64,000 bases of DNA from Candidatus Rariloculaceae bacterium (GCA_965237785.1 OZ250159.1:1099656-1163655), one strand, 5' to 3'; counted from the stretch's first letter, positions 1-64,000 are shown. Numbers and translations are program-made. Notes: a model not told the origin generated them from the sequence alone.

Positions 1-1961
1 AGTGGGCGGCTGAGAAACTTGCTCGTAATCCGCGGCAGCGCATTGCCATCGTCGTTTCCGGGATTGACGGTCGTCGCGGAGAGGTCGAGCGCATTTTGGA
101 AGATGCACTTTATCCGGAGCGCTCCCGGCTGGGTGCAGAGGGCGGCGCGCCTATCGTAAATTTGGGCGATCCGCCACCAACGGTCGAAAATCCGGTTATC
201 GGCGCTGCGCTAACGGCATTGGAGTTATTTTCGTCAAGGGGGCGCTTTCAAGTACTGAGTCGCTGGCTCCGCAGCCCGTTTTTCGTCTCCGCGACGGGTG
301 AAGCCGAGGCACGTTGCCGCCTGGAAGTTCAGCTCAGATCGCATATCGCTTCACAACTGGAATTTCTCGAAGCCTTCGGGTCTTGCGGATTGGCGGCGCG
401 AATCAATGCGGAGATGCCTGTGCTCGCCGATGTTCTCGCTTCTGGCGCGGAACTGATGAATTCGCAATCCAGGCAGGCAACTCCCACCCATTGGGCGGGT
501 GTCTGGCGGCGGCTGTTGAGCCTCCTTGGTTGGCACGCCAGCGTGGCGGACGCAACGGCGTTGGAAGACTGGGAGGCGGGCTTGAACGAGTTATCGCTGC
601 TGACCCCAATTCTCGGCGAACTCACGTGCGCTGACACACTGACGGAGCTGGAGAGAATTCTCGCGCGGCCGCAACGCGTCGGCTCGGTACCCCTCGAGGG
701 TGTCTTCCTGTTGGCAGACCCCGAAGACGTGGGGCCCGGTTACGATGCGCTTTGGATCGGCGGGCTTACCGATGCGATTTGGCCTCGGGTTCCGCAACCA
801 AGTCCGTTGCTGCCGCTAACGCTGCAGCGGGCCCACGGGATGCCCTTGACCCTCCCATCCGATGCCCTGGAACACTCTCGTGTGACGCTTCGACGGGCGA
901 TAGACCGCGTACCGGACGTCGTGTTGAGTTCGCCAGGGATCATTCGCGACTACCCGGCGCAACCCAGTCCATTGATCGTCTCGTATCCCAAGGTGCGCGT
1001 CGCCGACCTTGTGCGGCGCCCGACGAAGCGCGTTCGGCAATCACGCCCGCATCCCGCGCGAGTGGAAATCCGCCGTGATGCGGTACCCGCAGTGTCAAAC
1101 CGCCGAATGCGAGGCGGTGCCCACACATTGTCCTTGCACTCGCACTGTCCGCTGCGAGCGTTTCTTGAGAGTCGATTGCAAGCAACTCCACTGGAAACCG
1201 TCAGGGCCGGTCTGAGCGCTCGGCAGCGCGGCATAGTCACCCATTCGTCTGCGCAACAACTGTTTCGGGAGTTGCCGGCGCAGGCTGATATCGCATCCTG
1301 GAGCGTCGCCGAACGTTCGCGGCGTATAGATACCTGCGTCCAGGAGTCGCTTCGCAAGTTTTTTGGTCCTGCCGAAGACGCCTTGCGGGCGATCGTTGAC
1401 TTGGAGGCCGCGAGATTGCGGTCAGCCCTGACCGGCTTGTTGGAGCTTGAACTTGCTCGTAACGCGTTTCGGGTGAAGGCCGTGGAGTTTCCGGTGGAAG
1501 CGAGCGTCGGCGGAATGAAAATGATCTGCCGAATCGACCGAATTGACGAGTTGGTTCCCGGAGGGACGCTCGCCATCATCGACTACAAGACCGGCTCTTC
1601 GAGTCGGCCGGGCGACTGGCTCAAGGAGCGGCCTCGCAACCTGCAACTGCCCCTCTATGCACTGGCCGTTACAGGAGATGTACGCGGCGTGGTCATTGCC
1701 ACACTTCACCCGCGCAACCTGGGCTACAAGGGGGTTTGGACGGCATCCGGGATGTTCCCCGGGCGTTCGACCCGCTTGCCCGGCGGTCGTACCTGGCCCG
1801 TGCAACTGAGTTGCTGGCGCGATCGAATCGAGCTTTTCGCCAGGGAGTTTGCCCACGGGGACGGAAGAATATTCAAGACTCAACTCAAGGCGGCTGGTGG
1901 TGCTTTTGCACCCCTCACCCGTGTTCACGAGTTGGTGGCGCGGCAACGTCGACTGTCCTGA
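1..1961 (+). CDS. PD-(D/E)XK nuclease family protein, AddB-like (5' end outside window)
   Basis: The reading frame is open from base 3, with no stop upstream of the TTG at 96, so the gene starts outside the window. The C-terminal CRIDRIDEL...LAIIDYKTG matches a PD-(D/E)XK nuclease motif. It lies directly upstream of a UvrD-type helicase-nuclease, as in AddAB-like pairs. Confidence 0.7.
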   Translation, partial: WAAEKLARNPRQRIAIVVSGIDGRRGEVERILEDALYPERSRLGAEGGAPIVNLGDPPPTVENPVIGAALTALELFSSRGRFQVLSRWLRSPFFVSATGEAEARCRLEVQLRSHIASQLEFLEAFGSCGLAARINAEMPVLADVLASGAELMNSQSRQATPTHWAGVWRRLLSLLGWHASVADATALEDWEAGLNELSLLTPILGELTCADTLTELERILARPQRVGSVPLEGVFLLADPEDVGPGYDALWIGGLTDAIWPRVPQPSPLLPLTLQRAHGMPLTLPSDALEHSRVTLRRAIDRVPDVVLSSPGIIRDYPAQPSPLIVSYPKVRVADLVRRPTKRVRQSRPHPARVEIRRDAVPAVSNRRMRGGAHTLSLHSHCPLRAFLESRLQATPLETVRAGLSARQRGIVTHSSAQQLFRELPAQADIASWSVAERSRRIDTCVQESLRKFFGPAEDALRAIVDLEAARLRSALTGLLELELARNAFRVKAVEFPVEASVGGMKMICRIDRIDELVPGGTLAIIDYKTGSSSRPGDWLKERPRNLQLPLYALAVTGDVRGVVIATLHPRNLGYKGVWTASGMFPGRSTRLPGGRTWPVQLSCWRDRIELFAREFAHGDGRIFKTQLKAAGGAFAPLTRVHELVARQRRLS

Positions 1962-1976
1962 CGCGTGGGGATACGG

Positions 1977-4900: not shown

Positions 4901-5270
4901 CGCATCGGAACGGGTGATCCAGGCATTGGACGCTGTGCTCACCGATCCTGTCGGACTTTGGATCTTGGCCAACCACGGCGAGGCGCGTTCGGAATTGCCG
5001 ATAACACTGGTTAACGATGGCCGACTGGAGAACATGCGGTTGGACCGCACGTTCATCGATGACAAGGGGATTCGGTGGATCATTGATTTCAAGACCAGTT
5101 CCCATGAGGGAGGATCCACATCGTCGTTTCTGGATTCCGAGGTAAAGCGATATCGAGGGCAACTGGATCGCTATGCCAGGGCCCTGGCCTCGGTCGACAG
5201 CCGGCCGATCAGGGTGGGACTGTATTTCCCCTTGCTCCGGGCATTCAGGGACTGGCGCCCGCTCCAGTAA
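1977..5270 (+). CDS. UvrD/Rep-family helicase-nuclease, AddA-like
   Basis: Walker A SPAGSGKTE, helicase motif VDEFQDTS, QNFRS, and a C-terminal IIDFKTS PD-(D/E)XK motif. The ATG at 1977 is preferred over the GTG at 1965. Confidence 0.8.
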   Translation: MNDSPVRKRALDTSQSFIVQSPAGSGKTELLIQRYLALLSTVELPEQVVAITFTRKAAAQMRARVLAALANAALKKPPSEPHRRETYELARRALARDRHCKWFMIDQPRRLKIDTLDALNSWLAQRLPMSAGGVATARIVEDAREYNALAARRLMQRLGGSSPAAAALQNLLEHSTGTDEVVAKLAGMLSTRDQWLPLLLAGEEGQLRQEVDRALRRSVEDDLANVAGLLPAEAAAQLAPLLRHAAEHAPEYGTVFEEWRELGALPAPEFSLVRSWKALPELLLNKQGGWRKQLSVVGFSRRFVEPQEKLRALIASLANASDLRLALHELRAIPATEPGAAWWDELAALRTTLQHLVAELRVLFAERDAADFVELAFAAQRALGSTTQPSELLLALDRRIQHILVDEFQDTSRSQIRLLELLTAGWEPGDGRSLFLVGDPMQSIYRFRNADMALFLKAKYRGIGDTYCEPLVLTQNFRSSPMLIEWVNSAFSHVFPQTDDIRAGAARFSPSVAARAPSRNETVEVHALRGTDPEAETRHVANIVAEERARSPTGSVAILVQNRAHLTGLRSHLRALGLEAHAVQIEAPNQYQVTQDLIGLTRALTHFADRIAWLAVLRAPWCGIRWRDLHSLCRDDSDSAVWTLMHDPGRIAGLTADGRHRVAAIREILQLAFQSRAAQPLAHWVQRTWVTLGGPACVEDPEDLERAESFFSTLDEIATCGDLDDPAALESLFQDPSSSTDRPRESGIEIMSIHRAKGLEFDSVIVLGLGREPPAQSVKALCWHEQVHDSGEESVLLAPALADSAEFDALTRWVRGMERRKDDSERARLLYVAATRARERLHLVGQLAPGRSSPPPRSLLACLWPRVSTAFESAKAVGQSPKGEGEAFESELRRLAEPQSLAELRVVPPSRTVRRPHFDWAGQATLQVGVVVHRWLQTIARESTESWNGERVRAASSRFREELKLLGVEDGELADASERVIQALDAVLTDPVGLWILANHGEARSELPITLVNDGRLENMRLDRTFIDDKGIRWIIDFKTSSHEGGSTSSFLDSEVKRYRGQLDRYARALASVDSRPIRVGLYFPLLRAFRDWRPLQ

Positions 5271-5274
5271 GTGA

Positions 5275-7185
5275 TTAGAAGGCCAGATTGGTACCGATCC
5301 TGATGCGAGCGCCAGGAGAGGGAAACCCCGGCGCGTCTTCGTAGTCGTTATCGAACGCATTGTCGATCGCGATCCAGAATGTCTGATCTGCCAAGCGTTC
5401 GTAGCGGGCGGTCCCGCCCACGATCGTGTATCCCGCCGCGTTGACGTTACCAGTGGGTATCGATGTGATCAGGCGAGAGCCGACATATCGAGTCGTCACG
5501 TTAATGCGCCACCGTCGCGGGAGAGACCAGTCCAGACTCACACCGCCCATGCGCTCGGGGCGCCTGCGAAGGTCTTCGGACCGGCTCGAACTGTTTGACC
5601 AGGTACCGTCGACCAGCACTCGTAGTGTCGGCGACAGTTCCAGGCTGGTCCGGATTTCCACGCCGCTGACGTCAATCCGACCTCTGTTCACATTCGTAAA
5701 CGAGTCAAAGTCGAAGTCTACGAGATCCTCGTAGCGACTCCTGAAGGCGGAGAGAATCAACTCACTCCCGCCCGAAAGTACATGCGTGTATCCGATCTCC
5801 GCGTTGCGCACGTTTTCATCGATCAGGTTCTGATTCCCGAAGAGCGGATTGCCCAAAGCAAAAAAACTCGGCAATTTGAAGCCGTTTGCGACGCGTCCCC
5901 AGATGCGGCTGCCGCTCTCGGAAACCGTTCGTGCAATGCCCAACTTGCCCGAAAAGCGTCCCTCGCCGCCGTCGTGATCCCATCGCGTGGCGAGCGTTGT
6001 CGTGATGCCTCCGTTCCACTGTTTGCCGAGTTCCCCAAAAAGAGACGATACGGACCGGTCCAGTTCGTAGGAATTGGGGACCACGGCAAAGCCCAGATCG
6101 ACCGCGCCATCGTCACTGCCATCTTCCACGACGAAATCGGCGCCGGTAACGAGATGAAGGTTCTCCGGCAATTCAACGCGATTGACCCAAAGTAGCTGCG
6201 CCCGCTCGTAGCGGGTTATCGTGGAGAATGAAGGCTGTCCATCGAGCATGCCCGGCGCCACTGCGGGAACGTCGACGTTATCCCTGGTTCGTAAACTGCT
6301 TATATACAGATCGGATTGCCACATCTCCGATAAAGCCCAGCTGCTTGTGGCCGCAACGGCCAGCTCGTCGCCATCGGCGGTTTCAAGTTCCCGCAGTACC
6401 GCGGACCGCGGACCTCCACTGACTTCAGGGAAACTGGACCGATCGCGCCGAACGCCGCGGACGCCGATCTCCCAGGAGCCGCCTGTTGACCAGCCACCCG
6501 CGAGCCGGGAACCAAAGCTGTCAAGACGTAACGATGAGCCTTCGATTTCGTTGCCGCCGTCCAGCGCGGACGCGCGCACGCTCCACTCCAGGTCTTCGCC
6601 TGGATTGAACGACGCGCCGGCGCCGAATCGCCAGTCATCGATCGTGCCAGCCTCCAGAAATACGTTCGACGAACCCGGGTCGGCCCAGGCTGAACGAATA
6701 CGGATTACGCCGGCCATCGCATCCGCTCCATAGACAGCCGACATGGTTCCGGTTGCAACGTCTATGCGGTCGATGTCGTAGATGCCCAACAACGAGAAAT
6801 CGAACGATCCGCCGCGCGTATTGGACGGATTATTGAGGCGAATGTTGTCGACGTACACAGCGGTAAAGTTCGACTCCGCGCCGCGTAGAAAGATTTCTGA
6901 AACTCCGCCTGGTCCGCCGGGGCGGCTGACCGAGAACCCCGGTAACCTCTGGAAAAGTTGCTCGGGGTCAACGGGCTGACTCGTCGAGAGTTCCAAGGAA
7001 TCGGTAGCGATAGCCTCGCCGATGCCGAAAATGTCATTGTCGAGTCGCGTCTCGACGATGACGATCTCTTCCAATTCTTGCTCGTCGTCGCCGGTCGTTG
7101 GTGCAGCTGTCGCGGCCGCTACCCGTCCTGGGCCAAAGACGAGTGCGATGGCGACGGCGCTAATTGAACGGGCGGTTATCCCCAT
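5275..7185 (-). CDS. TonB-dependent receptor
   Basis: Signal peptide, TonB-box-like EEIVIVETR, plug-domain sequence IFLRGAESNFTAVYVDN, and a long beta-barrel ending in the typical terminal aromatic ...TNLAF. Confidence 0.85.
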   Translation of the reverse strand: MGITARSISAVAIALVFGPGRVAAATAAPTTGDDEQELEEIVIVETRLDNDIFGIGEAIATDSLELSTSQPVDPEQLFQRLPGFSVSRPGGPGGVSEIFLRGAESNFTAVYVDNIRLNNPSNTRGGSFDFSLLGIYDIDRIDVATGTMSAVYGADAMAGVIRIRSAWADPGSSNVFLEAGTIDDWRFGAGASFNPGEDLEWSVRASALDGGNEIEGSSLRLDSFGSRLAGGWSTGGSWEIGVRGVRRDRSSFPEVSGGPRSAVLRELETADGDELAVAATSSWALSEMWQSDLYISSLRTRDNVDVPAVAPGMLDGQPSFSTITRYERAQLLWVNRVELPENLHLVTGADFVVEDGSDDGAVDLGFAVVPNSYELDRSVSSLFGELGKQWNGGITTTLATRWDHDGGEGRFSGKLGIARTVSESGSRIWGRVANGFKLPSFFALGNPLFGNQNLIDENVRNAEIGYTHVLSGGSELILSAFRSRYEDLVDFDFDSFTNVNRGRIDVSGVEIRTSLELSPTLRVLVDGTWSNSSSRSEDLRRRPERMGGVSLDWSLPRRWRINVTTRYVGSRLITSIPTGNVNAAGYTIVGGTARYERLADQTFWIAIDNAFDNDYEDAPGFPSPGARIRIGTNLAF

Positions 7186-7290
7186 TGCATGGTTTTTATC
7201 ATCTGCTGCCGCTCACATGTCTTGATGATGGGGTCCACCGACATTCCTTGTTTGGATGAGAGAATTGCGGTCGCCGATCGGGCGATTGGG

Positions 7291-8265
7291 CTAGCTCGAC
7301 ATTCGGGCCAGACGCCGGTTAATCAGAACGTCGGCTTCAGCCATGATTCGGTCGATGAGCTCTTTCACAGTAGGGATGTCGTAGATAAGGCCTGCAACCA
7401 TTCCGCAAGACCATGCTCCGGCATCCATGTCGCCTTCCAGCATAATTTGGGGATAAACCCCCACAACGTCGTCAAAAATGTCTTCGAATTTCAGCTTGTC
7501 CCCGAGTCGCTTTTCGGTTTCAAGAAGCCGCTCAACAGCGGTATTGTTCAGGACCCGTTCGGTATTGCGCAAAGGACGCATGACCAGCCGCGTGTCCAGC
7601 TCGGTCGCGCTGACAATCGCCTGTTTGACGTGCTCGTGTACCGGGGCCTCCCTGGTTGCGATGAATCGGGTACCCATGTTCATGCCCTCCGCGCCCAATG
7701 CAAGCGAGGCAACGAGCGACCGCCCATCCGCTTGTCCGCCCGAGGCGACAAACGGAATTTCAAGCTCGTCCGCAGCGCGGGGGAGCAGAATCATGTTCGG
7801 AATGTCGTCTTCGCCGGGATGGCCACCGCATTCGAAACCGTCGACACTGGCCGCGTCGCAGCCGATTTTCTGCGCCTTCAATGCATGGCGAACCGATGTG
7901 CACTTATGAATGACCTTGATCCCGGCATCCTTCAGGTAGGGCAATACGTGAGAGGGATTGTTGCCCGCGGTTTCAACGATTTTCACGCCGCCATCGATGA
8001 TGGTCTTGATGATGGCCGGATAGTCGCGAGCACTGACTACCGGCAGAAACGTCACATTGACGCCGAAGGGCTTGTCGGTCATGTCCCGGCATTTCGCAAT
8101 CTCGTTTGCCAGATCAGCCGGGGTCTTCTGCGTTAGCCCCGTGATGATGCCGAGTCCACCCGCGTTGGACACGGCAGCCGCCAACTCGGCAAAGCCCACA
8201 TAGTGCATGCCGCCCTGAATAATCGGGTGCCGAATACCCAGCATTTCCGTAATTCGTGTCTTCAT
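7291..8265 (-). CDS. Nitronate monooxygenase / NAD(P)H-dependent flavin oxidoreductase (FabK-like fold)
   Basis: The N-terminus ITEMLGIRHPIIQGGMHYVGFAELAAAVSNAGGLGIITG is the characteristic NMO/2-nitropropane dioxygenase family signature. Confidence 0.8.
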   Translation of the reverse strand: MKTRITEMLGIRHPIIQGGMHYVGFAELAAAVSNAGGLGIITGLTQKTPADLANEIAKCRDMTDKPFGVNVTFLPVVSARDYPAIIKTIIDGGVKIVETAGNNPSHVLPYLKDAGIKVIHKCTSVRHALKAQKIGCDAASVDGFECGGHPGEDDIPNMILLPRAADELEIPFVASGGQADGRSLVASLALGAEGMNMGTRFIATREAPVHEHVKQAIVSATELDTRLVMRPLRNTERVLNNTAVERLLETEKRLGDKLKFEDIFDDVVGVYPQIMLEGDMDAGAWSCGMVAGLIYDIPTVKELIDRIMAEADVLINRRLARMSS

Positions 8266-8347
8266 GAAGTCGGTCCGTCAGGTAACTGAACGAATCGCAA
8301 GGTTTCGTATGTCATCGGTTTCCGCTTTCCAGGGACAAGGTTCGGAC

Positions 8348-9081
<734 letters not shown>

Positions 9082-10501: not shown

Positions 10502-10538
10502 TGTCGTCACTCATCGATCCAGTATGTCTACGGCATGC

Positions 10539-14193: not shown

Positions 14194-14282
14194 AACAACG
14201 TAACAAGTCCGGCTCGCCGGGCGAGGTTACTGGACTTGGGCATGATTAACCACTCGCCCAGACACATTTACTGGAGAGCAAT

Positions 14283-17051: not shown

Positions 17052-17062
17052 GGCAGGGGAAT

Positions 17063-50819: not shown

Positions 50820-50876
50820 CCCCGGCTCTTCACCCATTGGCGCATTTCTGAATTATCCGAGCTTGGGAGAATAGCG

Positions 50877-52397: not shown

Positions 52398-52509
52398 GTG
52401 CCCACTGCCAAAGTTTAAATCTTTGTTACACGGCGGAGTCGAGCGCGCGAGCGAACGTCGGAGTCGGTATAATTCCCGATTGACTTGAAACTTCCCGAGG
52501 ACAACCAAG

Positions 52510-53742: not shown

Positions 53743-53749
53743 TACCCCG

Positions 53750-54616
53750 ATGCGCCCGCTCGAATACATCGTTCCGGAGAGCGCCGACGCGGCCGTGGCC
53801 GTGTTGGCGGAGCACGGCGAACATGCCTGCCCTCTGGGCGGCGGCACGGATCTTGTGGTGGATCTCAAGCACGCGCCCGGCAACATCAGCGCGCTGGTTG
53901 ACATATCCGGCCTGAAGGAGTTCCTCGGCATCGAAGAGACCGACGAGGGACTGCGAATCGGCAGCATGGTCACCTATGGCGAGATCATGCAAAACCCGAT
54001 CTGCCTGGAGAAAACGCCGGAAGTCGTGGCCGCATCGCATACGGTTGGCGCCGTCCAGACCCGCAATCTGGGCACTATCGGCGGCAACCTGGTGACGTGC
54101 GTGCCCTCGGCCGACAGCGCACCGGCGTTGATGGTACTGGACGCGGAAGTCACCCTCGTGGGCCCCAACGGCTGGCGGCGAATGCCGATCGATGACTTCT
54201 TCGTCGGTCCCCGCAAGACCATTCTGGAGCCTTACGAACTTCTTGCGGAAATCTGGATTCCAAAGCATACCTTGGGCAAGCCATCGAACTTCTGCAAGTT
54301 CGGGCTGCGCAAGGGACAGGCTCTGGCCCTGGTAAACACCGCCGCCGCGCTGGAACTGGACAATGGCAAGATCGTGGAACCGCGCATCGCGCTCGGCGCC
54401 GTCGCGCCCACGCCCCTTCGGGCGCTGAAAGCCGAGGCCTTTCTTGCAGGCGGGGAAGCCGACGCTGAAAATCTGGACGAGGCGGCTAGAATCGCGGTTA
54501 CGGAAGCCAAACCGATCGACGATTTCAGGGCGTCCGCCAACTACCGCAGGCAATTGATTCACACCCTGACCCGGCGGGTTCTGGAGCGGTCCGTGGCGAT
54601 CGCACAGGAACGATAG
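53750..54616 (+). CDS. Molybdo-flavoenzyme FAD-binding subunit (CoxM/XdhB-like)
   Basis: PLGGGTDLVVDLK, TIGGNL, and the C-terminal ..DDFRASANYRR. Confidence 0.8.
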   Translation: MRPLEYIVPESADAAVAVLAEHGEHACPLGGGTDLVVDLKHAPGNISALVDISGLKEFLGIEETDEGLRIGSMVTYGEIMQNPICLEKTPEVVAASHTVGAVQTRNLGTIGGNLVTCVPSADSAPALMVLDAEVTLVGPNGWRRMPIDDFFVGPRKTILEPYELLAEIWIPKHTLGKPSNFCKFGLRKGQALALVNTAAALELDNGKIVEPRIALGAVAPTPLRALKAEAFLAGGEADAENLDEAARIAVTEAKPIDDFRASANYRRQLIHTLTRRVLERSVAIAQER

Positions 54617-54651
54617 CTCGTGGCAGGACCTGGCAACGGAGAACTTGAGGT

Positions 54652-55131
54652 ATGTTGGTAGAACTTACGGTCAACGGTGAATCCAGGTCGGCCGACGTGC
54701 CGCCGGAGACGACATTGCTGAAGATGTTGCGAGAGCAGCTCGGGCTGACCGGGGCGAAGCTCGGTTGCGACGTGGGTGACTGCGGGACGTGTACCGTCAT
54801 CGTCGACGACGTATCCGTCAACTCGTGCCTGATGTTGGCGGGTCGCGCGGGCGGATGCGATGTGACCACCATCGAGGGACTGGCGAACGCGGACGAATTG
54901 CATCCGCTGCAGCAGAAATTCGAGGAGCACGGCGCCCTTCAATGCGGATTCTGTGGGCCCGGCATGCTTATCTCGGCCAAGAATCTGCTCGACCGGAACC
55001 CGAATCCCAGTGTCTTCGACGTTCGGGATGCTCTTGCCGGTAATCTCTGCCGCTGTACCGGATACACCAAGATTATCGAAGCGGTTATCGATGCGGGCGA
55101 GATGATGAACTCGGAGCAGGCGAACGTTTAA
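54652..55131 (+). CDS. (2Fe-2S)-binding small subunit (CoxS-like)
   Basis: GCDVGDCGTCTV and QCGFCGPGM...CRCTGY cysteine clusters. Confidence 0.9.
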   Translation: MLVELTVNGESRSADVPPETTLLKMLREQLGLTGAKLGCDVGDCGTCTVIVDDVSVNSCLMLAGRAGGCDVTTIEGLANADELHPLQQKFEEHGALQCGFCGPGMLISAKNLLDRNPNPSVFDVRDALAGNLCRCTGYTKIIEAVIDAGEMMNSEQANV

Positions 55132-55191
55132 GGCCTGTAACGGTTAAGGCCTGTTTAGCGCTAGTTGCCCTGCCCGAAAAGGAGAATGCGG

Positions 55192-56595
55192 ATGGCGACC
55201 CGAATAAAGGATGTTCAGACCAACGTTGAAGACCTTGTAACGGCACGTGAAGCGAGGGCGCCATCCAGGCAACCCCTGGCGGTTCCGGCTGACAATCCGG
55301 TTACCTTTCCGCTGGATCTTCCCGAGAGCGAGTCCCGGCTTCGAACCCCGGCGGTGGGACAGCGGGCGACCCGGCCGGACGGCCGTCTTCACGGCCTCGG
55401 GCAAACCAGGTACATCGACGACTTCACCTTTCCGCACATGCTCCATGCCAAGATCCTGCGCAGTGAATATCCTCACGCGCGCATCGTCAGCATCGACACC
55501 AGCGAAGCGGAAAAGATGCCGGGCGTGATGGCAACGCTGACCGGCGCCGAGGTTCCGGAGAATTCATTCGGCCCCACGTACCAGGACCAGCCGGTACTCG
55601 CCTACCCCATCGCCCGGCATCGCGGTGACGGTGTAGCGGCGGTCGCCGCGACCTCCGAGCAACTGGCCCTCGACGCGCTGGAGAAGATCAAGGTCGAGTA
55701 TGAGCCTCTTCCGGCGGTATTCGATCCTCTGGAGGCCATGAAAGACGACTCGCCCAAGGTGCATGGCGATTCCAACATCTATACCAGCAAGACGATCAGG
55801 AAGGGCGACGTGGAGAAAGGCCTGGCAGAGGCCGACCACGTCTTTCACCGGCAGTTTCGTACCCAGATGGTGGAGCACGTGCCGTTGGAGCCGCATGCTT
55901 CAATCGCCTCCTGGGACGGTAACGGTCGTGTCACCCTTTGGACCAGCCTCGGACGGATCACGCTGGGCCGCGAAGACCTGGCGCGCACATTGCACATGCC
56001 GCAAAGCCGGATCCGGCTGATCGGCACCGTGGTCGGCGGCAATTTCGGCGGCAAGAACGAAATCACCAGCGAACCGATCCTGGCGCTGTTGGCCAAAAAG
56101 TCCCGCCGGCCCGTCAAGTCCGTGTTCACGCGCGGCGACGAGTTCGTCTCCTCGACCATCCGCCACCCCTTCACCATGGATTACACTACCGGGGTCAATA
56201 ACGACGGCAAAATCGTGGCGCGAAAGATTCGCCTGGTTCTCGACGGCGGCGCGTATTGCTCGTGGACGGGCACCACCATCGGCAAGGGATCGATTTTGGC
56301 GCCGGGACCGTACAATATCGACAATGTTCTTGTGGAGGCCTACGCGGTCTATACGAACAAGACAACCACGGGCGCCATGCGCGGATTCGGCGCGCCGCAG
56401 GTCTGTTTTGCCTACGAATCCCAAATGGACGATATGGCCCAGGCGCTGGGCATCGACCCATTGGAGATCAGGCTGCGCAACGGGTTCTCGGAAAACTCCC
56501 TGAGCCCCACCGGGCAGAGCCTGCAAAGCGTGGCATTGAAGGAGTCGCTGACCCAGGCGGCGGATCGATTCGGTTGGAAGGAGTGGCGGGCATGA
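55192..56595 (+). CDS. Xanthine dehydrogenase-family molybdopterin subunit, N-terminal part
   Basis: GQTRYIDDF...MLHAKILRSEYPHARI..IDTSEA...GV. region, then GGNFGGK and the GAMRGFGAPQ motifs. AAGGAG ribosome-binding site before the ATG at 55192. Confidence 0.8.
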   Translation: MATRIKDVQTNVEDLVTAREARAPSRQPLAVPADNPVTFPLDLPESESRLRTPAVGQRATRPDGRLHGLGQTRYIDDFTFPHMLHAKILRSEYPHARIVSIDTSEAEKMPGVMATLTGAEVPENSFGPTYQDQPVLAYPIARHRGDGVAAVAATSEQLALDALEKIKVEYEPLPAVFDPLEAMKDDSPKVHGDSNIYTSKTIRKGDVEKGLAEADHVFHRQFRTQMVEHVPLEPHASIASWDGNGRVTLWTSLGRITLGREDLARTLHMPQSRIRLIGTVVGGNFGGKNEITSEPILALLAKKSRRPVKSVFTRGDEFVSSTIRHPFTMDYTTGVNNDGKIVARKIRLVLDGGAYCSWTGTTIGKGSILAPGPYNIDNVLVEAYAVYTNKTTTGAMRGFGAPQVCFAYESQMDDMAQALGIDPLEIRLRNGFSENSLSPTGQSLQSVALKESLTQAADRFGWKEWRA

Positions 56596-57602
56596 AGAAG
56601 CGCGGACGCGGCATGGCGTGCATGTGGTACCCCATCGGCTTTACGGTGGCGGCCAACCCCAGCGCGGCAACCGTCAAGGTGAATACCGATGGAACCGCGA
56701 CATTGCTCACCGGTACGGTGGAAACCGGTCAAGGCGCCCTCACCGTGCTCGGCCAGATCGCCGCGGAAACACTCGGTCTCGCCACCGACGACGTGCATGT
56801 CGTCTCCGGCGACACCGACGTGACGCCCATGGACACCGGCGCCATTGCCAGCCGCACCACGTACGTCACCGGTAACGCCATCGTTCGCGCCGCGGAAAAG
56901 GCGCGCGACATCCTGTTCGAGGCGGCGGCGCCGCTGCTCAACGTCAAGCCGGAACAACTGGAAGTCAGGGACAGGCATATCCAGGTCCTGGGGTTTCCAT
57001 CAAGATCGATCCCGATCGACAAGGTGGTCCACCACAGCGAAACCGTCATGGGCAACCCGGCGATCGGGAGCGCTTCCTACAATCCGCCCACCGTTGAAAT
57101 GGATCCGGAAACCGGCCAGGGCAAGCCATTCAATACCTACGTCTACGCCACCCAGATCGCCGACGTCGAAGTCGATGACGAAACCGGCGAAGTGGAAGTG
57201 CTGAAGATCGTGGCGGTCCACGATTGCGGAACGCCCATCAACCCGATGCTGGTCGAAGGCCAGATTCAGGGCGGTATTTCCATGGGCGTGGGATTTGCCC
57301 TGCAGGAAGAAATCCTCTTCGAGGAAGGCCGCCAGATCAATCCCAACCTCACCAACTACATCATGCCCACCAGCCTGGACATGCCCGAACTGGATGTGGG
57401 ATTGGTGGACAATTACGATCCCACCGGCCCCTTTGGCGCCAAGGGCGCCGGGGAGCCCACGGCGGTACCCACCGCGGCTTGCATCATGAATGCGATATTT
57501 GACGCCGTAAGTGTCAGGATCACCGCCCTGCCAGCGACCGCGGAGCGGGTACTGACCGCCATTAACGAGAAACGTCAGGCTGAGCAAGCCGACGCGGCTT
57601 AA
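56592..57602 (+). CDS. Xanthine dehydrogenase-family molybdopterin subunit, C-terminal part
   Basis: Starts MKKRGRGMACMWYPIGF, with its ATG overlapping the previous stop (ATGA). Contains GTVETGQG, VHDCGTPINP and FGAKGAGEP motifs. Confidence 0.8.
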   Translation: MKKRGRGMACMWYPIGFTVAANPSAATVKVNTDGTATLLTGTVETGQGALTVLGQIAAETLGLATDDVHVVSGDTDVTPMDTGAIASRTTYVTGNAIVRAAEKARDILFEAAAPLLNVKPEQLEVRDRHIQVLGFPSRSIPIDKVVHHSETVMGNPAIGSASYNPPTVEMDPETGQGKPFNTYVYATQIADVEVDDETGEVEVLKIVAVHDCGTPINPMLVEGQIQGGISMGVGFALQEEILFEEGRQINPNLTNYIMPTSLDMPELDVGLVDNYDPTGPFGAKGAGEPTAVPTAACIMNAIFDAVSVRITALPATAERVLTAINEKRQAEQADAA

Positions 57603-57727
57603 CCAGCGCTGGTTGCCCGGTTTGGGCCGCGCGGAGGTTTGGGCAACTCCCGCGGCCCGTCCGCCACATACAGAACACTCAAATGTGGTTGCATGGCTGA
57701 TCTTTGCCGTGTGCGCTTACGTCTCGC

Positions 57728-57756
57728 TTGACATAGAGTGAAATTACTTCAGTATT
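57728..57756 (+). promoter_or_regulatory. Possible sigma70 promoter of the repeat-protein gene
   Basis: TTGACA (57728-57733), 17-nt spacer, weak -10 AGTATT. Located 25 nt upstream of the ATG at 57781. Confidence 0.3.
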
Positions 57757-57780
57757 TTTTGGGTGCGACAGGAACCGGAA

Positions 57781-58272
57781 ATGAAGGCCAGTCACGTCAG
57801 CTCGGAATTCTGGGCCATCGTTGGGGTGGGTGTTTCCCTGGCCCTCCTTATTATCGGTATGGGCACGTTCATGGTGACCGACCATTCGTCGATGCGTGCC
57901 GAGATGAGATCGATCCGTACTGACCTGGGCAGTGAGATAGGCATGCTTCGCGCCGACAATCGAGACGATCACATCGCGATACGCAATGACCTGGGCAGCG
58001 AGATAAGCATGCTCCGCTCCGACAATCGAGACGATCACATCGCAATACGCAATGACTTGGGCAACGAAATAAGCATGCTTCGCGCCGACAATCGAGACGA
58101 CCACATCGCAATACGCAATGACCTGGGCAGCGAGATAAGCATGCTCCGCACCGATAATCGAGACGACCACATTGCAATACGCGATGACATAGAAGCACTG
58201 GGTGGGCGGATGGGCTATGTCGAGGGACGGCTCGGTATTCCCCCTGTAGACGTCGGACCCGAGGCTCCGTAG
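57781..58272 (+). CDS. Membrane-anchored protein with four 22-residue tandem repeats
   Basis: N-terminal TM helix FWAIVGVGVSLALLIIGMGTFMV followed by 4x DLGSEISMLRADNRDDHIAIRN. The long antisense ORF 57679..58749 is judged spurious. Confidence 0.6.
   Translation: MKASHVSSEFWAIVGVGVSLALLIIGMGTFMVTDHSSMRAEMRSIRTDLGSEIGMLRADNRDDHIAIRNDLGSEISMLRSDNRDDHIAIRNDLGNEISMLRADNRDDHIAIRNDLGSEISMLRTDNRDDHIAIRDDIEALGGRMGYVEGRLGIPPVDVGPEAP
57922..58185 (+). repeat. Four tandem 66-bp coding repeats
   Basis: Units start at 57922, 57988, 54 and 58120 with no indels. Units 1 and 2 differ at 5 of 66 positions (about 92 percent identity). Confidence 0.9.
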
Positions 58273-58296
58273 GAGAGCGCCACCGGATCGGGATAT

Positions 58297-59406
58297 ATGA
58301 CCGTATTCGAGATTCCACAGACGATGAAAGCCTGGGTCCTGGGCGACCCGGATGAACTCAAGCTGGTGGAAAAACCGGTGCCCCGGCCCGGAGCCGCGGA
58401 GGTGCTGGTGCGAATCGACGCGGTGGCCATCTGTGCCACCGACCTGGAAATCATCAGCCACGGCGCCCCGGCCATGATCGGCGGCGAACTGCCGTTCAAC
58501 AAGAATTTCACTCCCGGCCACGAATACATGGGCACGATCGTCGCGCTGGGACCTACCGTGGATGAATTTGCCGTGGGAGAGCGAATCGCCGTGGAAATCC
58601 ATGCCGGCTGCGGCCGTTGCCAGCGCTGCCGCATGGGCATGTACACCTCGTGCCTGAATTACGGCGCCAATTACGGTGAATTCTCGAAGGGGCACCGAGC
58701 GAACGGCTACACCACCGACGGCGCATTCACCCAATACGCAGTGAATCACGTTAATACACTGGTCAGGGTGCCGGACTTAATGAGCGACGAAGTGGCTACG
58801 CTGATCGTCACCGCCGGGACCGCGACCTATGGACTCGACGTCCTCGGAGGGCTGGTGGCGGGTGAGAGCCTGGCAGTCACCGGCGCCGGACCTATCGGCC
58901 TTCTCGGGGTTGCCGTCGGCAAGGCTTTGGGCGCCGGCCCCGTCATTCTTACGGATATCGTCGACGAGCGTCTGCACATCGGCGTCCGGCTCGGCGCCGA
59001 TCATGTGGTCAACGCAGCCCGTGAACCTGCGGTAGAGGCCGTGCGCCGCGCCAACGGCGGGCGCGGAGTGAGCTTTGCGTTGGAGTGCTCCGGCGCGCCC
59101 AACGCCGTCAATGAAGCCATCGCCATCGTCAACCGCGGCGGGCGCGTCTGCCTGGCCGCATTTTCACCGAAACCTGTTTCCGTGGATATCAGCCAGATTG
59201 TTATCAACAACATCTACCTCTATGGCATTCGCGGCGAAGGTCAGAGTGCCGTGCGCCGCGCCGCGGCATTGATGACCCAGAAAAAATTCGATGCTTCCCC
59301 GGTTCACACTCATACTTTCCCGTTGAGTGAGCTGCCGGAGGGGCTTCGCCACGCCCGGGAGAAACTCGACGGCGCCATCAAGGTGGTCATCAAGAACCAG
59401 GAATGA
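58297..59406 (+). CDS. Zinc-dependent alcohol/polyol dehydrogenase (MDR family)
   Basis: ICATDLE, GHEYMG, the structural-zinc CGRCQRCRMGMYTSC, and the GAGPIGL Rossmann motif. Confidence 0.85.
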   Translation: MTVFEIPQTMKAWVLGDPDELKLVEKPVPRPGAAEVLVRIDAVAICATDLEIISHGAPAMIGGELPFNKNFTPGHEYMGTIVALGPTVDEFAVGERIAVEIHAGCGRCQRCRMGMYTSCLNYGANYGEFSKGHRANGYTTDGAFTQYAVNHVNTLVRVPDLMSDEVATLIVTAGTATYGLDVLGGLVAGESLAVTGAGPIGLLGVAVGKALGAGPVILTDIVDERLHIGVRLGADHVVNAAREPAVEAVRRANGGRGVSFALECSGAPNAVNEAIAIVNRGGRVCLAAFSPKPVSVDISQIVINNIYLYGIRGEGQSAVRRAAALMTQKKFDASPVHTHTFPLSELPEGLRHAREKLDGAIKVVIKNQE

Positions 59407-59454
59407 CCGAAGGCCCTCAGCCGAATTACCCGCAAAACCGAAAGGAAGAGACAA

Positions 59455-59760
59455 ATGCCCGCGTACTGGCTCGCACGCTCGAAAATTAATGACCCGGTGG
59501 AATATAAGCGCTACACGGATCTCGTTCCCGCCATCCTGAGCAAGTTCAACGGCAAGGTGTTGGCCAGAGGCGGACGCCACGAACACCTGGAACGTGGCGG
59601 CCACTTCCAACGCCACGTGGTCGTCGAGTTTCCTACCTTCGAGGATGCCGTGGCCTGCCACCGTTCACCGGAGTACCAGGAAGCACGTCTGTTTCGATTG
59701 AACGGGGTCGGTGACAACGAGTTGGTAATCGTCGATGGGGGTGATGCGACCCCGCAGTGA
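59455..59760 (+). CDS. DUF1330-domain protein
   Basis: 101 aa. MPAYWLARSKINDPVEYKRY...VVVEFPTFEDAVACHRSPEYQEA matches the DUF1330 pattern. Confidence 0.8.
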   Translation: MPAYWLARSKINDPVEYKRYTDLVPAILSKFNGKVLARGGRHEHLERGGHFQRHVVVEFPTFEDAVACHRSPEYQEARLFRLNGVGDNELVIVDGGDATPQ

Positions 59761-59926
59761 CGTTTGTCGGCCCACTCGGTCTGACCTCCTTGCAGCGTCG
59801 TCGAACTCCGCCAAGTCGATATCGGTGACGAACGCTCTATCTAGTGCGTGGTTGGGACGTAAGCGGCGAGAACGATTTCCGCGTACCTTGACAGGAAGCC
59901 GCTCCAGGGTAGTCGGAATTCTTCCT

Positions 59927-60140
59927 TCAATTTGAGGCCCGTATTGCGTTCAACAATTCGCGGCCTTTGTCCGTTGTAACGAATTCGTCGTACACTGTTT
60001 TGGATGCTTCGCGAAATGGGGTCGTATCCGGGTACGTTACTTTCACGCCGTTGCGTTGCAACACGGAAAGTAAACTATTGTCGCTATCAGCATATGCTTG
60101 CCGTTCGAGAATCGCCGACTGCCGGCCCGCACTTGTTGAA
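59927..60140 (-). pseudogene. TRAP transporter solute receptor (DctP family) C-terminal fragment
   Basis: ...AILERQAYADSDNSLLSVLQRNGVKVTYPDTTPFREASKTVYDEFVTTDKGRELLNAIRASN* matches only the last ~70 residues of DctP-type proteins. Nothing upstream fits. Confidence 0.55.
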
Positions 60141-60146
60141 TCCGGA

Positions 60147-60188
60147 CCTCCAGGACCAGAACGCGTTCCTCCAGGACCAGAACGCGTT
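60147..60188. repeat. Perfect 21-bp tandem duplication, each copy containing a 10-bp palindrome
   Basis: cctccaggaccagaacgcgtt occurs twice (60147-60167 and 60168-60188). The core gaacgcgttc is self-complementary. Confidence 0.9.
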
Positions 60189-60274
60189 CCTGGATGACGA
60201 TCTGCGTGCGCCGCAACAGCTCTTCCATGGAAATGACCGACGTTATGAGGGCCGTGATGAGGAGGCCGTTCATG

Positions 60275-60976
60275 TCACACTATTTTGGCGTCTCCTGTGG
60301 AGGCCTCGATATCGAGCGGAGCAACCAGACGACCGTATTCAAGATCCTCCGCCACGAGGGGTTGGCGCCCGATGGCGACGCCAAGACCCTCTACTGCGGC
60401 GTGGAGGGCCAGTGCCAATGTGTCCAGCTTGAGGCAACTTTCCGTATCGATGTCGTGAACGCCAGCCGCGTCGCACCACAATTGCCACTCGTTCGGGTGT
60501 TGAATGTTGTGGATCAGCTTGCAGCGGGTGAGATCCTCGGGCCGTTCGATTGGGCCGTGGTCGGCAATCAGCTGCGGGCTGCAGACCGGGAAAAAGGTCT
60601 CTTCCACAATCAGGTCGAGTTGCGAGCCGGACCAATCGCCGCGACCAAAACTGATCGCCATGTCGGCCTCGACATAACGGAAGTCGGCAGGAGTGGTGGA
60701 AGTGACCAGGCGCACCTCGATCTCAGGATGCAGGTCTTGAAAGGATGAAATTCGCGGTATCAGCCAACGAGCGGCGAAAAGTCCGAGGACGAAGATTGTT
60801 AGGCTGCGATTCCCGGAAGTGTTCCGTAAGCGCGAAGTCGCTGATCCAATGCAATTGAGGGCGTCGCGAATGTCTGGAAGATACTCCTGCCCGTGACCGG
60901 TTAGTACGATGCCTCGACCGAGGCGGCGAAACAGTTGGATGCCAAGAAATGTTTCCAGCTGCGACTTGGCAGGAAC
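60275..60976 (-). pseudogene. LysR-family (GcvA-like) regulator lacking the N-terminal HTH and probably the C-terminal end
   Basis: The frame opens after a TAA at 60977-60979 with ...AKSQLETFLGIQLFRRLGRGIVLTGHGQEY... This corresponds to about residue 45 onward. The wHTH recognition part is missing and the gene ends early after GRLVAPLDIE. Confidence 0.7.
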
Positions 60977-61065
60977 TTATCGTAGAAATAAAGAACGACT
61001 ACCCCGATCCCCAGAATATGATTGATGTGCATCAAGAGTGAGTAGACAAAGCGCAGGTACATTTA

Positions 61066-61815
61066 TTGTCGACGAATCTTCTTCCAGTCCCATGGGAGCA
61101 ACGAGTCGATGTGGTACCGCGCGCAGAGTACCTGCGGAAGGGATCTTACTACGGTAATTTTTCGCGTGCGAGACAAGTCAACGATGAAGGAGTGTTAGTT
61201 GCACAGTGGATGATCAACCCGTTCGAGGAGCAGTGGGACGAACAAACCAAGGCCGAAGACCTCGTCGAGCACGATTACGGAGTAATCATCGTGACTGCTC
61301 CCCACGAGACCTATTCCGGCCACCATGTTCAGAGCCTCTACCAGATGCACAACCCGAGCAAGCTGCGCCGCACAAACGGAATATTCATCTTTAGCGAAGG
61401 ATGGGGACTCTACAACGAGCAACTTATGCGGGAGACCGGTTTTTACCCAAATGATCGCATTGTGTTGCGCCAGTTGCAGCTGCGACTATGGCGAAATGCT
61501 CGCGTAGTATGGGACGTTGGAATTCATACAGGGAAAATGTCTTACGAAGAGGCAATTACTCTGTTGAGTGATGGAGTCGGTTTCCTCCGCTGGGCGGCTC
61601 AACTCGAAATCGACGGCTCCGCGGAGAGTCCGGTTTACAAAATCGGTTACTTCCTCGGAATGTACGAGATCCTCAAGATGCGAGAGGAGTACGAGGACCG
61701 CATGGGCGATCGTTACTCACTGGCGGAATTCCACGAACGGCTGCTGAAAGTAGGCAATATGCCTCCAGCGCTTATGCGTAAAGGGCTGATGGCCGCAATT
61801 TCCGATCCCGCCTGA
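61066..61815 (+). pseudogene. DUF885-family protein, C-terminal half only
   Basis: Contains HETYSGHHVQ (the HExxxGHH motif) and the C-terminal domain. Family members are ~550-600 aa and this one is 249 aa. The frame is closed by a TGA ~25 nt upstream of the first possible start. Confidence 0.65.
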
Positions 61816-61931
61816 TCGGACAGCATGCTGATCGCAGATTCCGGCGCTCATGGCTGGATTCCGATTTTGCCGTATTCCGGGGCATAACGAGCTGGCGAAT
61901 TGTTCTGATTGCATTTCGTAACGGGAACCTC

Positions 61932-62973
61932 TTATTGCGCGACCCGATCGATAACCAACTCCATTACCCCACTGCCCTCTTCCGGGCGTATACTGAATTT
62001 CCCCGAACAGATCGCCCGGCTGTGCGGTGGGCTGACCCGACGCCGGACAGGCGGGCGACCACGGTCAGCGCGTCGAAAGTCGGCCAGCGAACGGCCCGGT
62101 AGCATGTTGTTGGCATCGCTCAGGGTGAACTCACCGGGCACGGCGGAGGCCGTATCCCTGATCACGGCCACCGGCGGACCGCCCTCAGGCGCACGGGCGA
62201 AGATAAAGAGCGCCACGGCGGGGTTGCCGACGACTGCGTCGGCGCTGAGTCCCTCGGCAAGACGGATGCTGAGCCTGATCTCCAATCCGGCGGGGGCCTC
62301 CGCCTGAGCAAGCTGCAGGGACTCGTCCGCCGACTGTAACGCGCCGCCCAGACGCGTCAAGGTGCTGGCGGAGCACGTCGCGGAGCGCCTGAGGGGGATC
62401 CAACTGCAGCAGGCGCGTCCAGCGCATGCGCGCGACCTCTGCGCGCTGGGTCGCCGCGGCGGCCAAGCCGCCGTACCAGAGTGCCGTGGGGTTCTCCGGC
62501 TCGAGTTGCAAGATCTCTTCGAATAGCTGGCCAGCCGAGCCCCGCAACGACTCGGGATCGGCCAAGACCTCGGCTTCGCCGAGCGCAAGCCTCAAGTCGG
62601 TTTCCGGCGCCGGCGTTCGCGCCAGGGCTTCGCGGAAGGCCCGACGCGCGTCGACGAAGCGACTCAACGACATGTAGCTCTGGCCGAGAAGAAACCAGCC
62701 GGCCGGATCGTCCGGCTGCTCTTGAAGACGGGCGTCGAGGTTGGCGACCAGTTCAACCATTGCCGGCATCGCGCCAGGCGGAGCAGATTGACCCTGCCAT
62801 GTGCCGATGCCGAGATAAAGCACCACCGCAGAGGGCACCAGCAGACCGGCTGCCACCGAGCCGAGACCCGACCAGCGTCCGCTGCGCCGCCGTTCCCGCC
62901 ACAGCGGCACGAGCACGAAACCCAGCGCACCCAGGGACAGAATGGCGGCGCCGATCCAGAACTGGACGATCAT
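61932..62973 (-). pseudogene. ccmI: Cytochrome c maturation protein CcmI (CycH) with frameshifts
   Basis: The N-terminal TM and TPR part (MIVQFWIGAAILSL...LLGQSYMSLSRFVDARRAFREAL...) is in the frame of ORF 62185..63081. The C-terminal part (...LEIRLSIRLAEGL...ALFIFARAPEGGPPVAVIR...VMELVIDRVAQ*) is in the frame of ORF 61932..62588. There are further local frame changes near 61985-62076. Confidence 0.7.
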
Positions 62974-63389
62974 GAGGTTTCCGATTCTTCCAGGGGTTGT
63001 GCCATGCGCACGCGCAGTACGCGAATGAACACCACGAGCCCGATGATGACGAAAATCGCCGGACCTCCCCATAGCGCCCACGTGGTGGGCTGGAAGGGAG
63101 GTCTGTACAGCACGAAGTCGCCGTAGCGAGCAACGAGAAACTCAACGACTTCCTGCCGGGTTGCGCCCTCCCCCATCATCTCCCGAATCTCGCGGCGCAA
63201 GTCGGCAGCCAGCGGCGCGTTGGAGTCCGCAATGGTCTGGTTCTGACAGACCAGGCAGCGAACTTCCTTGATCAATCCCTGGTATTGCGCCTCCAATACC
63301 GGGTCTTCAAAGGGGGGATGCGGGTCGATGGCCCAGACCGGCGCCAATATCAGCACCGATGCCAACGCGATTGCGAGCCGGTGCATCAT
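62970..63389 (-). CDS. ccmH: Cytochrome c-type biogenesis protein CcmH (CycL)
   Basis: Signal peptide, LRCLVCQNQ motif, C-terminal TM helix. The start overlaps the ccmG stop and the stop overlaps the ccmI start (ATGA in both cases). Confidence 0.85.
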   Translation of the reverse strand: MMHRLAIALASVLILAPVWAIDPHPPFEDPVLEAQYQGLIKEVRCLVCQNQTIADSNAPLAADLRREIREMMGEGATRQEVVEFLVARYGDFVLYRPPFQPTTWALWGGPAIFVIIGLVVFIRVLRVRMAQPLEESETS

Positions 63390-63943
63390 TCCCTCTCCAC
63401 CAGCGGACAAGGCAGGCTGCCGCACCGCTCCGCGATCCTGGGAAGAAATTCCCGGGCCCAGACTGCCTCGTTGAGCGGGGCGATGTGCTTGTAGAGCACT
63501 GTTCCGTCCCGAGCCAGCAGGAACGTTTCCGGCGCGCCGTAAACGCCCCAGTCGATCGCGACATCGCCCATCTCGTCAAATGCCGAAGCCACGTAGGGAT
63601 CGCCCAGATCGGAGAGCCAGTTGAGCGCTGCAGGCCGTTGATCCTTCCAGTTGAGGCCGAATATCGGCACGTCGCCCGACTCTGCCAGGTCAACCAGAAA
63701 TCCATGCTCCTGCCGGCAGCCGACGCACCACGTCGCCCAGACATTGAGCAGCGCGACCTGGCCATCGATATCGCGGCTGCCGAGCGTCACTTCCGGATCC
63801 TTGAGCCGAGGCAGTTCGAATTCGGGTGCGGGCTTACCCAGGAGCGGGGATGGAACATAGCCCGGGTTGAGGCTCAACCCACGAAAGAAGAAGCCCGCCA
63901 GGACCACAAAGACGGCAACAGGAATAAGATACCGCCACATCAC
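63386..63943 (-). CDS. ccmG: Thiol:disulfide interchange protein DsbE/CcmG
   Basis: N-terminal TM anchor, the WATWCVGCRQEH thioredoxin motif, and GVYGAPETFL. Confidence 0.9.
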   Translation of the reverse strand: MMWRYLIPVAVFVVLAGFFFRGLSLNPGYVPSPLLGKPAPEFELPRLKDPEVTLGSRDIDGQVALLNVWATWCVGCRQEHGFLVDLAESGDVPIFGLNWKDQRPAALNWLSDLGDPYVASAFDEMGDVAIDWGVYGAPETFLLARDGTVLYKHIAPLNEAVWAREFLPRIAERCGSLPCPLVERE

Positions 63944-64000
63944 GCCGGTTCCGCCGCCCGTCCGGCGCGCTTCGGCGCCGCCTGACGCTTCCGCTCAAGC
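63940..64000 (-). CDS. ccmF: Probable ccmF, 3' end only
   Basis: An open frame ...LERKRQAAPKRAGRAAEPA* ends with a TGA overlapping the ccmG start. The call rests on position in the ccm operon only. Confidence 0.45.
   Translation of the reverse strand, partial: LERKRQAAPKRAGRAAEPA

Follow-up and report, generated by a model that had tools for sequence, protein, structure and literature searches.

Probable recent gene loss by deletion, beside decaying acquired DNA, in a 64-kb stretch of a Candidatus Rariloculaceae bacterium

The stretch of DNA treated here, hereafter the window, comprises 64,000 nucleotides of a Candidatus Rariloculaceae bacterium (GCA_965237785.1 OZ250159.1:1099656-1163655), has a GC content of approximately 60%, and belongs to a source contig of 4,388,645 bp that carries the truncated acyl-CoA dehydrogenase (ACAD) and CcmI proteins of the window. 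A first-pass annotation had listed nine broken genes on its backbone, namely those for a dehalogenase, an ACAD, a phosphotransferase (APH family), an MDR and an SDR oxidoreductase, a DctP, a LysR and a DUF885 protein, and ccmI, and all nine were found. The lesions lie at 8.3-11.6 kb, at 17.06-17.5 kb and at 59.8-63 kb, and in addition a decaying island occupies 25.7-40.2 kb. In this report, we describe the broken genes and their counterparts in related genomes, and weigh the evolutionary readings that they allow.

The window was compared with one conspecific contig and three relatives. The conspecific sequence is the metagenome contig ERZ26167216 ctg493692_7.51x_l of the European Nucleotide Archive (ENA), which is 391 kb long and 99.8-100% identical to the window, and of which two parts were used, L001 (window 14463-32174) and L002 (window 42511-62575). 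The relatives, read as pieces of 13-21 kb, are L003, a contig of the metagenome-assembled genome (MAG) "Gammaproteobacteria bacterium Langseth_MAG_00106" with 82-85% nucleotide identity to the window; L004 (ENA ERZ25069191 ctg586849_15x_l, 1.46 Mb), whose ACAD shows 80% amino acid (aa) identity and which is collinear with window 2-20404; and L005 (ENA ERZ26167216 ctg495871_41.42x_l, 4.26 Mb), whose CcmI is 88% identical and which is collinear with window 49215-63954. The identity between L003 and L004 is 98-99%, so that they represent one species. Apart from the Langseth Ridge MAG, the nearest relatives derive from long-read metagenomes. A scan of metagenomes with the ACAD gave more distant outgroups only, in which the ACAD-APH(-SDR) order is kept but the wider synteny is not, and a scan of JGI metagenomes with GspL gave no matches.

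The accessory catabolic cluster contains five remnants:

8351-8973, minus strand: remnant of a haloalkane-dehalogenase-family alpha/beta hydrolase (Pfam Abhydrolase_1, tblastn, blastn)
10551-10853, minus strand: remnant of an APH-family phosphotransferase (Pfam APH 2-85 of 239; tblastn and blastn against L004)
10789-11640, minus strand: ACAD remnant (Pfam, tblastn, lengths of homologs)
17063-17169, plus strand: remnant of an MDR of the NAD(P)H:quinone oxidoreductase family (translation compared with relatives, blastn)
17172-17480, plus strand: SDR remnant (Pfam adh_short 2-45 of 195; comparison with L004)

The dehalogenase gene has suffered a frameshifting internal deletion of approximately 274 bp with a clean junction at 8680/8681. 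Pfam Abhydrolase_1 is matched at positions 4-62 and 135-244 in two frames, and with the 299-aa protein of L004 as tblastn query, residues 1-105 and 190-299 are found to be retained; this intact L004 protein reaches the NCBIfam cut-off for haloalkane dehalogenase. The ACAD remnant corresponds to residues 1-284 of 406, its C-terminal domain is deleted, and Pfam detects the N and M domains only. A deletion of approximately 480 bp at ~10850-10857 has joined ACAD to APH, and the open reading frame (ORF) continues through the junction to 10699, giving a 314-aa product that is identical on two contigs. Among the matches listed for the ACAD, every non-self homolog (119/119) is 402-414 aa long and carries PF00441. 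The APH remnant (residues 16-116 of 339) is trimmed by deletions on both sides, and the one at its 3' end removes ~630-640 bp, with a junction at ~10537-10547, and reaches the start of the next gene, an intact SDR. L004 holds intact counterparts (ACAD 406 aa, APH 339 aa, SDR 262 aa), and in six metagenome outgroups ACAD and APH stand side by side at full length. Several members of the cluster, namely SDR255, a glyoxalase, a thiolase, an aldehyde dehydrogenase and a Vgb-like protein, are still intact and constrained.

Of the MDR, about 25 N-terminal and about 10 C-terminal residues are left around a junction at ~17129, and 355 bp are missing relative to L004 in blastn, while the adjacent SDR has lost 480 bp in frame at 17367/17368, with a microhomology of TCA. 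The same pair is damaged in the relatives. In L004 the SDR is intact (262 aa) and the MDR is internally cut to 152 aa; in L003 the SDR is short by ~585 bp, and part of the MDR middle that L004 has lost is still present; in the window both genes are deleted, at junctions unlike those of L003 and L004. This amounts to at least four independent deletions within 1.8 kb of MDR-SDR across three related genomes, and since the pair carries different deletions in each of the three, the deletion process is read as ongoing in the clade.

The five deletions mapped in this cluster (~274, ~480, ~630-640, 355 and 480 bp) were placed to within a few bases by blastn breakpoints against L004, and the joined ends are flush, microhomology amounting to 0-8 nt. 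The remnants share 78-85% aa identity with L004, like their intact neighbours, and no extra stops or frameshifts relative to L004 were found inside their surviving parts. Ratios of nonsynonymous to synonymous substitution rates (dN/dS) against L004 are 0.12-0.24 for the remnants and 0.07-0.22 for the intact neighbours, with dS of ~0.45-0.9. The remnant values lie within the intact range and indicate purifying selection; the genes were thus constrained through most of the divergence and the deletions are recent, although they arose before the split of the two conspecific strains.

The two conspecific sequences differ in several respects. Their substitutions are patchy, with 31 of 34 differences in 16672-17649, 18 in 43237-43732 and 6 in 49952-50359. 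A 3.67-kb segment of the island and an IS630-like element at ~59846 occur only in the conspecific contig, and a 21-bp tandem duplication and four 1-bp insertions in ccmI only in the window. Owing to these differences, the two are regarded as independent assemblies of one species. Within the three patches divergence reaches 1.5-3.6%, long identical stretches lie between them, and one of them spans the MDR and SDR remnants; they look like imports by homologous recombination or strain switching in the consensus. The conspecific contig further has one extra A in PilZ (window 43241; L002 ~731), which shortens the protein from 110 to 93 aa; as L003 is inferred to have ~110 aa, like the window, this indel is placed on the ENA side, as an error or a variant.

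The conspecific contig aligns without gaps over 14463-31277, across both the MDR and the SDR junctions, despite 31 substitutions in the same kilobase. Altogether, the SDR and MDR lesions, the ACAD/APH junction and the gene fragments of an islet near 60 kb, also present in L002, are reproduced in conspecific data, and because they recur in an independent assembly, an assembly artefact is excluded for them. The same type of deletion is also present in the MAG L003.

The third spot of damage consists of this islet and the adjoining ccmI:

59761-61941: debris islet of 2.18 kb between DUF1330 and ccmI, absent in L005
59930-60121, minus strand: C-terminal fragment of DctP (Pfam positions 233-283 of 286)
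60278-60976, minus strand: LysR truncated at both ends (Pfam HTH 36-60 of 60, substrate domain 5-176 of 209)
61066-61815, plus strand: C-terminal DUF885 fragment of 249 aa (Pfam, partial coverage)
61935-62973, minus strand: frameshifted ccmI (base-level alignment; tblastn frame switches)

In the LysR, the HTH lacks positions 1-35 and the substrate domain ends ~33 positions early, and the DUF885 protein, for which ~425 aa would be expected, has homologs on long contigs that are mostly ~420-430 aa. In L005, ccmI and DUF1330 are only 121 bp apart and the 2.18-kb segment is absent, and in the conspecific contig the IS630-like transposase is inserted beside the fragments. Since one relative is without the segment and the conspecific contig has an adjoining insertion sequence (IS), the DctP, LysR and DUF885 fragments are better explained as what is left of acquired DNA than as broken core backbone. 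The 21-bp tandem duplication mentioned above is perfect (2.1 copies), lies within the islet at 60147-60191, and is single-copy in the conspecific contig.

The damage to ccmI is of a different kind, consisting of four 1-bp insertions at ~61991, 62043, 62079 and 62353, within 362 bp and in non-homopolymer contexts, seen in this assembly only. The gene call is 262 aa here and 345 aa in conspecific assemblies; relatives and conspecifics have 345-349 aa with a C-terminal Ig_CycH domain, and among the matches listed almost all CcmI homologs are 330-360 aa. The other ~34 kb of conspecific alignment contain a single 1-bp indel. In ccmI the four indels stand alongside about one substitution, unlike neutral decay, and the site adjoins a structurally polymorphic spot. 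The odds are about even between an error of the local consensus and a real inactivation of very recent date.

On the whole backbone, nine remnants stand against 41 intact loci, or 18% remnants, and intact genes cover 80% of it, a local figure of coding density. Under a nominal pseudogene rate of 3%, the binomial probability of at least nine remnants is 1.6e-5, for a window that was picked post hoc and in which the lesions are clustered. In local tallies, broken genes number 9 among 50 loci of the window, against 1 among ~19 loci of L004 and none among ~24 of L005. Syntenic relatives hold full-length copies of six of the nine backbone remnants, and the remaining comparable backbone genes are all full length against relatives or NCBIfam models. 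A split MoCoBD large subunit (467 and 336 aa) was considered as a further pseudogene and ruled out, as L005 has the same split.

These results agree with the first-pass annotation in much, but not in scope. It had described clean deletions of hundreds of bp with preserved flanks, and five such deletions could be mapped with clean junctions; it had placed the losses in accessory catabolic, regulatory and transport genes and called the core genes intact, which are indeed full length against relatives or NCBIfam models. Its caveat that a poor consensus could account for frameshifts but not for large deletions fits ccmI on the one hand and the junctions recurring in the conspecific assembly on the other. 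As to the nine genes being "backbone" genes, the remnants exist, but those of DctP, LysR and DUF885 are debris within an inserted islet. The description of the pattern as window-wide was overstated, for the lesions are confined to three spots and the island.

Truncated clusters had also been counted among the signs of loss, in that gspCDEF, fabD and pabC are missing beside the following genes:

17535-22993, minus strand: intact gspN-M-L-K-J-I-H-G block of a type II secretion system (ENA gene calls and Pfam; full length against relatives)
22994-23182: divergent spacer between gspG and fabG, ~190 bp, an ancestral junction and not a deletion scar
23183-25704, plus strand: intact fabG-acpP-fabF (Pfam; 89-94% aa identity and full length against a relative)

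GspH matches its NCBIfam equivalog. In L003 a single blastn segment, with 85% identity at the junction, runs through fabF-fabG-gspG-M with the same ORF arrangement, 16 bp separate fabF from the mltG-side sequence, and there is no fabD, gspCDEF or pabC at these junctions. Because the absence is shared with a genome that is ~17% diverged, it is ancestral, and the claim of recent losses falls with the identical arrangement of L003 at 82-85% nucleotide identity. In this clade the fab cluster begins at fabG without plsX-fabH-fabD upstream (23183-25704), and fabF is then directly followed by mltG-tmk-holB-pilZ without pabC (40285-43314; L003). Two other explanations of this region were rejected. An 18-bp spacer between gspG and fabG had appeared as a possible deletion scar, and was ruled out since, in the long ORF, the N-methyl prepilin motif of GspG comes at residue 58; the true start is thus 57 codons downstream, at ~22993, and the spacer measures ~190 bp. 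A single inversion between the fabD/fabG and gspF/gspG junctions, which would explain both missing halves, was set aside as unnecessary, the junction being ancestral.

The island, an insertion relative to L003, contains the following features:

25711-40183: integrated, decaying mobilizable island of 14.5 kb between fabF and mltG, absent in L003
25733-25943: left end, with two SSB-like fragments in head-to-head orientation that make up an imperfect inverted repeat of 105 nt
26114-27421: P4-type integrase at one end of the island (Pfam Arm-DNA-bind_3 and Phage_integrase)
29289-30635: AbiV-like abortive-infection protein (weak match, at the NCBIfam cut-off)
31265-32074: Sel1 protein with five repeats (Pfam)
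34624-34764, minus strand: IS1595 transposase fragment (Pfam)
35551-38619, minus strand: full-length MobF/TrwC relaxase of 1022 aa, 37% identical to a plasmid MobF
39125-39478, minus strand: fragment with GST_N only (Pfam)
39408-40069, minus strand: intact ParE/ParD toxin-antitoxin pair (Pfam)

The inverted repeat lies just after fabF and before the integrase; its arms are 72% complementary, with 1 nt between them, and each translates to an SSB-like fragment, one of which is matched by Pfam SSB (13-57 of 104). The repeat may be a scar left where two elements integrated one after the other, or may belong to the attachment region. At least seven relics had been announced for the island; the SSB, IS1595 and GST_N fragments are seen by Pfam and the second SSB-like one by eye from the inverted repeat, which verifies the count in part. 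No convincing flanking direct repeat and no tRNA target were found for the island, and the whole 64-kb window is without tRNA genes or Rfam matches; likewise no coupling protein and no type IV secretion system (T4SS) genes were detected in the island. In its integrase at one end, MobF relaxase, ParDE, abortive-infection-like cargo and presence as an insertion relative to L003, the island resembles integrative mobilizable elements or decayed integrative and conjugative elements, and it differs from them in having neither a tRNA target, direct repeats nor a detected coupling protein or T4SS, and in its several gene fragments.

Two further observations concern the island. Two ORFs in the same frame with high GC at third codon positions (0.75 and 0.84), separated by one stop, lie at 33369-33905 on the plus strand without a Pfam match and may represent a nonsense-interrupted island gene. 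The extra segment of the conspecific contig (3.67 kb at window 31551-31590; L001 17000-20671) encodes an AAA_22 ATPase and an rve/HTH_32 transposase fragment, a Tn7/Mu-like pair, and is a presence/absence polymorphism inside the island within the species. As to mobile elements in general, the window has one IS1595 fragment and no multi-copy IS, and the conspecific contig one IS630-like element and the rve fragment.

Structural differences were also observed elsewhere. A 66-bp tandem repeat (4.1 copies, 90% identity, 57921-58188) lies in a segment of ~620 bp (57603-58296) between the MoCoBD_2 and ADH genes, which is present in the conspecific contig too; L005 has only 85 bp there. A BtuB-like TonB-dependent receptor with an NMO/FabK-like oxidoreductase (5262-8290) and an 890-bp segment with an uncharacterised 258-aa ORF (13384-14272) are present here and absent in L004. 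In the reverse direction, one feature of L004 is missing from the window:

site 15716-15869: position of a 470-aa MFS metabolite/H+ symporter gene (~1.77 kb) of L004, absent here

Taken together, the most probable reading, which we hold with good though not full confidence, is recent and local deletional gene loss combined with decaying acquired DNA, on a gene order that is older and inherited, with ccmI as either a recent inactivation or a consensus error. In such a process, genes that are dispensable in the lineage would be removed by spontaneous deletions of ~0.3-0.6 kb; the little or no microhomology at the junctions suggests that RecA-independent illegitimate recombination may be the mechanism, acting on genes under relaxed selection. 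The damage would then have accumulated in three places: in the accessory catabolic cluster (dehalogenase, ACAD-APH and MDR-SDR) with its five mapped deletions; in a 2.2-kb remnant of acquired DNA by a polymorphic IS site, with the DctP, LysR and DUF885 fragments; and in the 14.5-kb integrated mobilizable island, which appears to have lost most transfer functions. This is gene loss of a known type, local, in a new organism, and mildly unusual in that mid-size deletions dominate and recur across strains.

Several points weigh against this reading. Young pseudogenes of enteric bacteria have a different lesion spectrum, whereas here almost only mid-size deletions are seen, and no nonsense mutations or small indels except in ccmI. 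The conspecific confirmation does not extend to the dehalogenase deletion or the 3' deletion of APH, and the difference at the islet fits either an insertion here or a deletion in L005. In the same way, both gain and loss are possible for the MFS gene, the NMO oxidoreductase with the TonB receptor and the 13384-14272 segment. The data cover 64 kb of a window that was flagged for looking broken, so that the 18% fraction is not to be extrapolated, and the source contig, at 4.39 Mb and 60% GC, is similar to those of relatives (contigs of 4.26-5.9 Mb) and gives no sign of size reduction. Finally, the organism is an uncultured marine gammaproteobacterium for which an association with sponges is probable, resting on the name of one related MAG and on one paper: the metagenomes published for Langseth Ridge were obtained by Illumina sequencing of Geodia parva sponge tissue (PMC8826442), and the L003 MAG probably derives from these Illumina/megahit data.

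Among the rival explanations, the best surviving one holds that one dispensable pathway was lost, its partners drifting after the first failure, beside ordinary decay of acquired DNA and with no change in lifestyle. It overlaps heavily with recent local gene loss as described above, from which it differs only in scope, and we consider it a tenable if tentative account. It is in line with five of the six in-situ lesions lying in two adjacent operon-like groups (dehalogenase/ACAD-APH-SDR and thiolase-MDR-SDR), with the other fragments lying in inserts absent from relatives, and with the intact rest of the backbone. Against it stand the five members of the cluster that are intact and constrained, and the deletions that arose repeatedly and independently in three genomes, which point to a tendency of the whole clade.

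That the window is a representative sample of early reductive evolution, proceeding genome-wide after a shift to a host-restricted life in a sponge, is an unlikely extension of the data. The local figures (18% remnants, 80% intact coding density) would suit it, as would the loss of accessory catabolism, regulation and transport beside intact core genes, the independent deletions in relatives, the naming of one relative after the ridge whose published metagenomes come from Geodia parva, and the presence of mobile-element debris, a toxin-antitoxin pair and a Sel1-repeat protein. Yet these data are local to 64 kb, and a smaller genome or lower GC is not observed, the contig resembling those of relatives in both. 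Moreover, the lesions are clustered, with no broken gene in 40.2-59.7 kb and 17.5-25.7 kb, L005 has none in 21 kb, and the three supposedly lost clusters are ancestral. Within narrower bounds, ongoing deletional gene loss in a plausibly host-associated lineage is a reasonable reading.

More speculative, and in our view improbable, is the proposal that the clade has a mutational regime of its own, in which deletions of 0.3-0.6 kb nearly free of microhomology, and not nonsense mutations, small indels or IS insertions, are the primary inactivating event. Least probable of all is that both deletions and frameshifts were made by the assembly or consensus of a low-coverage long-read metagenome, for although the near-identical ENA contig is labelled 7.51x and the four clustered non-homopolymer insertions of ccmI occur in one assembly only, against the single 1-bp indel in ~34 kb, and adjoin a structurally polymorphic site (IS presence or absence, 21-bp duplication), the large deletions recur at the same junctions in two assemblies that are distinguished by substitution patches, an IS and a 3.7-kb indel, occur as the same type in a MAG of the Illumina/megahit era, and show clean junctions with flanks in frame and conserved, so that this account is viable for ccmI only.

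Deletional bias and the erosion of pseudogenes in bacterial genomes were reportedly described by Mira, Ochman and Moran in 2001, and by Andersson and Andersson for Rickettsia. The present case is similar in that non-functional genes are deleted, flanks are preserved, and the same gene is hit by independent deletions across lineages; it differs in that the inactivating lesions themselves seem to be mid-size deletions (0.27-0.64 kb), and no point lesions that preceded them are seen in the 64 kb examined. Sodalis glossinidius is an example of early-stage genome reduction. Early-stage reduction in a recently host-restricted symbiont is also described for Serratia symbiotica (PMC5013485), and transposon-mediated genome reduction for the luminous symbionts of anglerfish (PMC6020299). 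With such symbionts the window shares many young pseudogenes among genes of accessory metabolism, transport and regulation, a lowered local coding density and mobile-element debris, and it is unlike them in that no IS expansion is visible within its 64 kb and, for the organism, no reduced genome size or GC. Among sponge-associated bacteria, pseudogenes or genome reduction are reported for the Tethybacterales (PMC8546597) and Microbulbifer spongiae (PMC12388028). The likeness lies in marine, sponge-linked Proteobacteria, and in Sel1-repeat, toxin-antitoxin and mobile DNA, which occur here too; the lineage is a different one (the ACAD is 65% identical to a Microbulbifer protein), and the sponge link here comes from a MAG name.

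For annotation, two lessons follow, namely that "missing" neighbours of textbook operons, such as fabD, pabC and gspCDEF, can be ancestral gene order, and that clustered 1-bp indels in one assembly, as in ccmI, need a read check before a pseudogene is called. With regard to biology, if the mid-size-deletion regime were true, it would mean strains of 98-99% identity that differ by reciprocal deletions in neighbouring genes, and would point to a deletion-generating mechanism or a repair defect. If the pattern of the window were genome-wide, this organism and its relatives would give a well-resolved long-read view of gene loss in progress, with exact breakpoints, deletions polymorphic within species and repeated hits on the same genes, and would help in dating the lifestyle shifts of sponge-associated bacteria and in measuring the natural size spectrum of spontaneous deletions.

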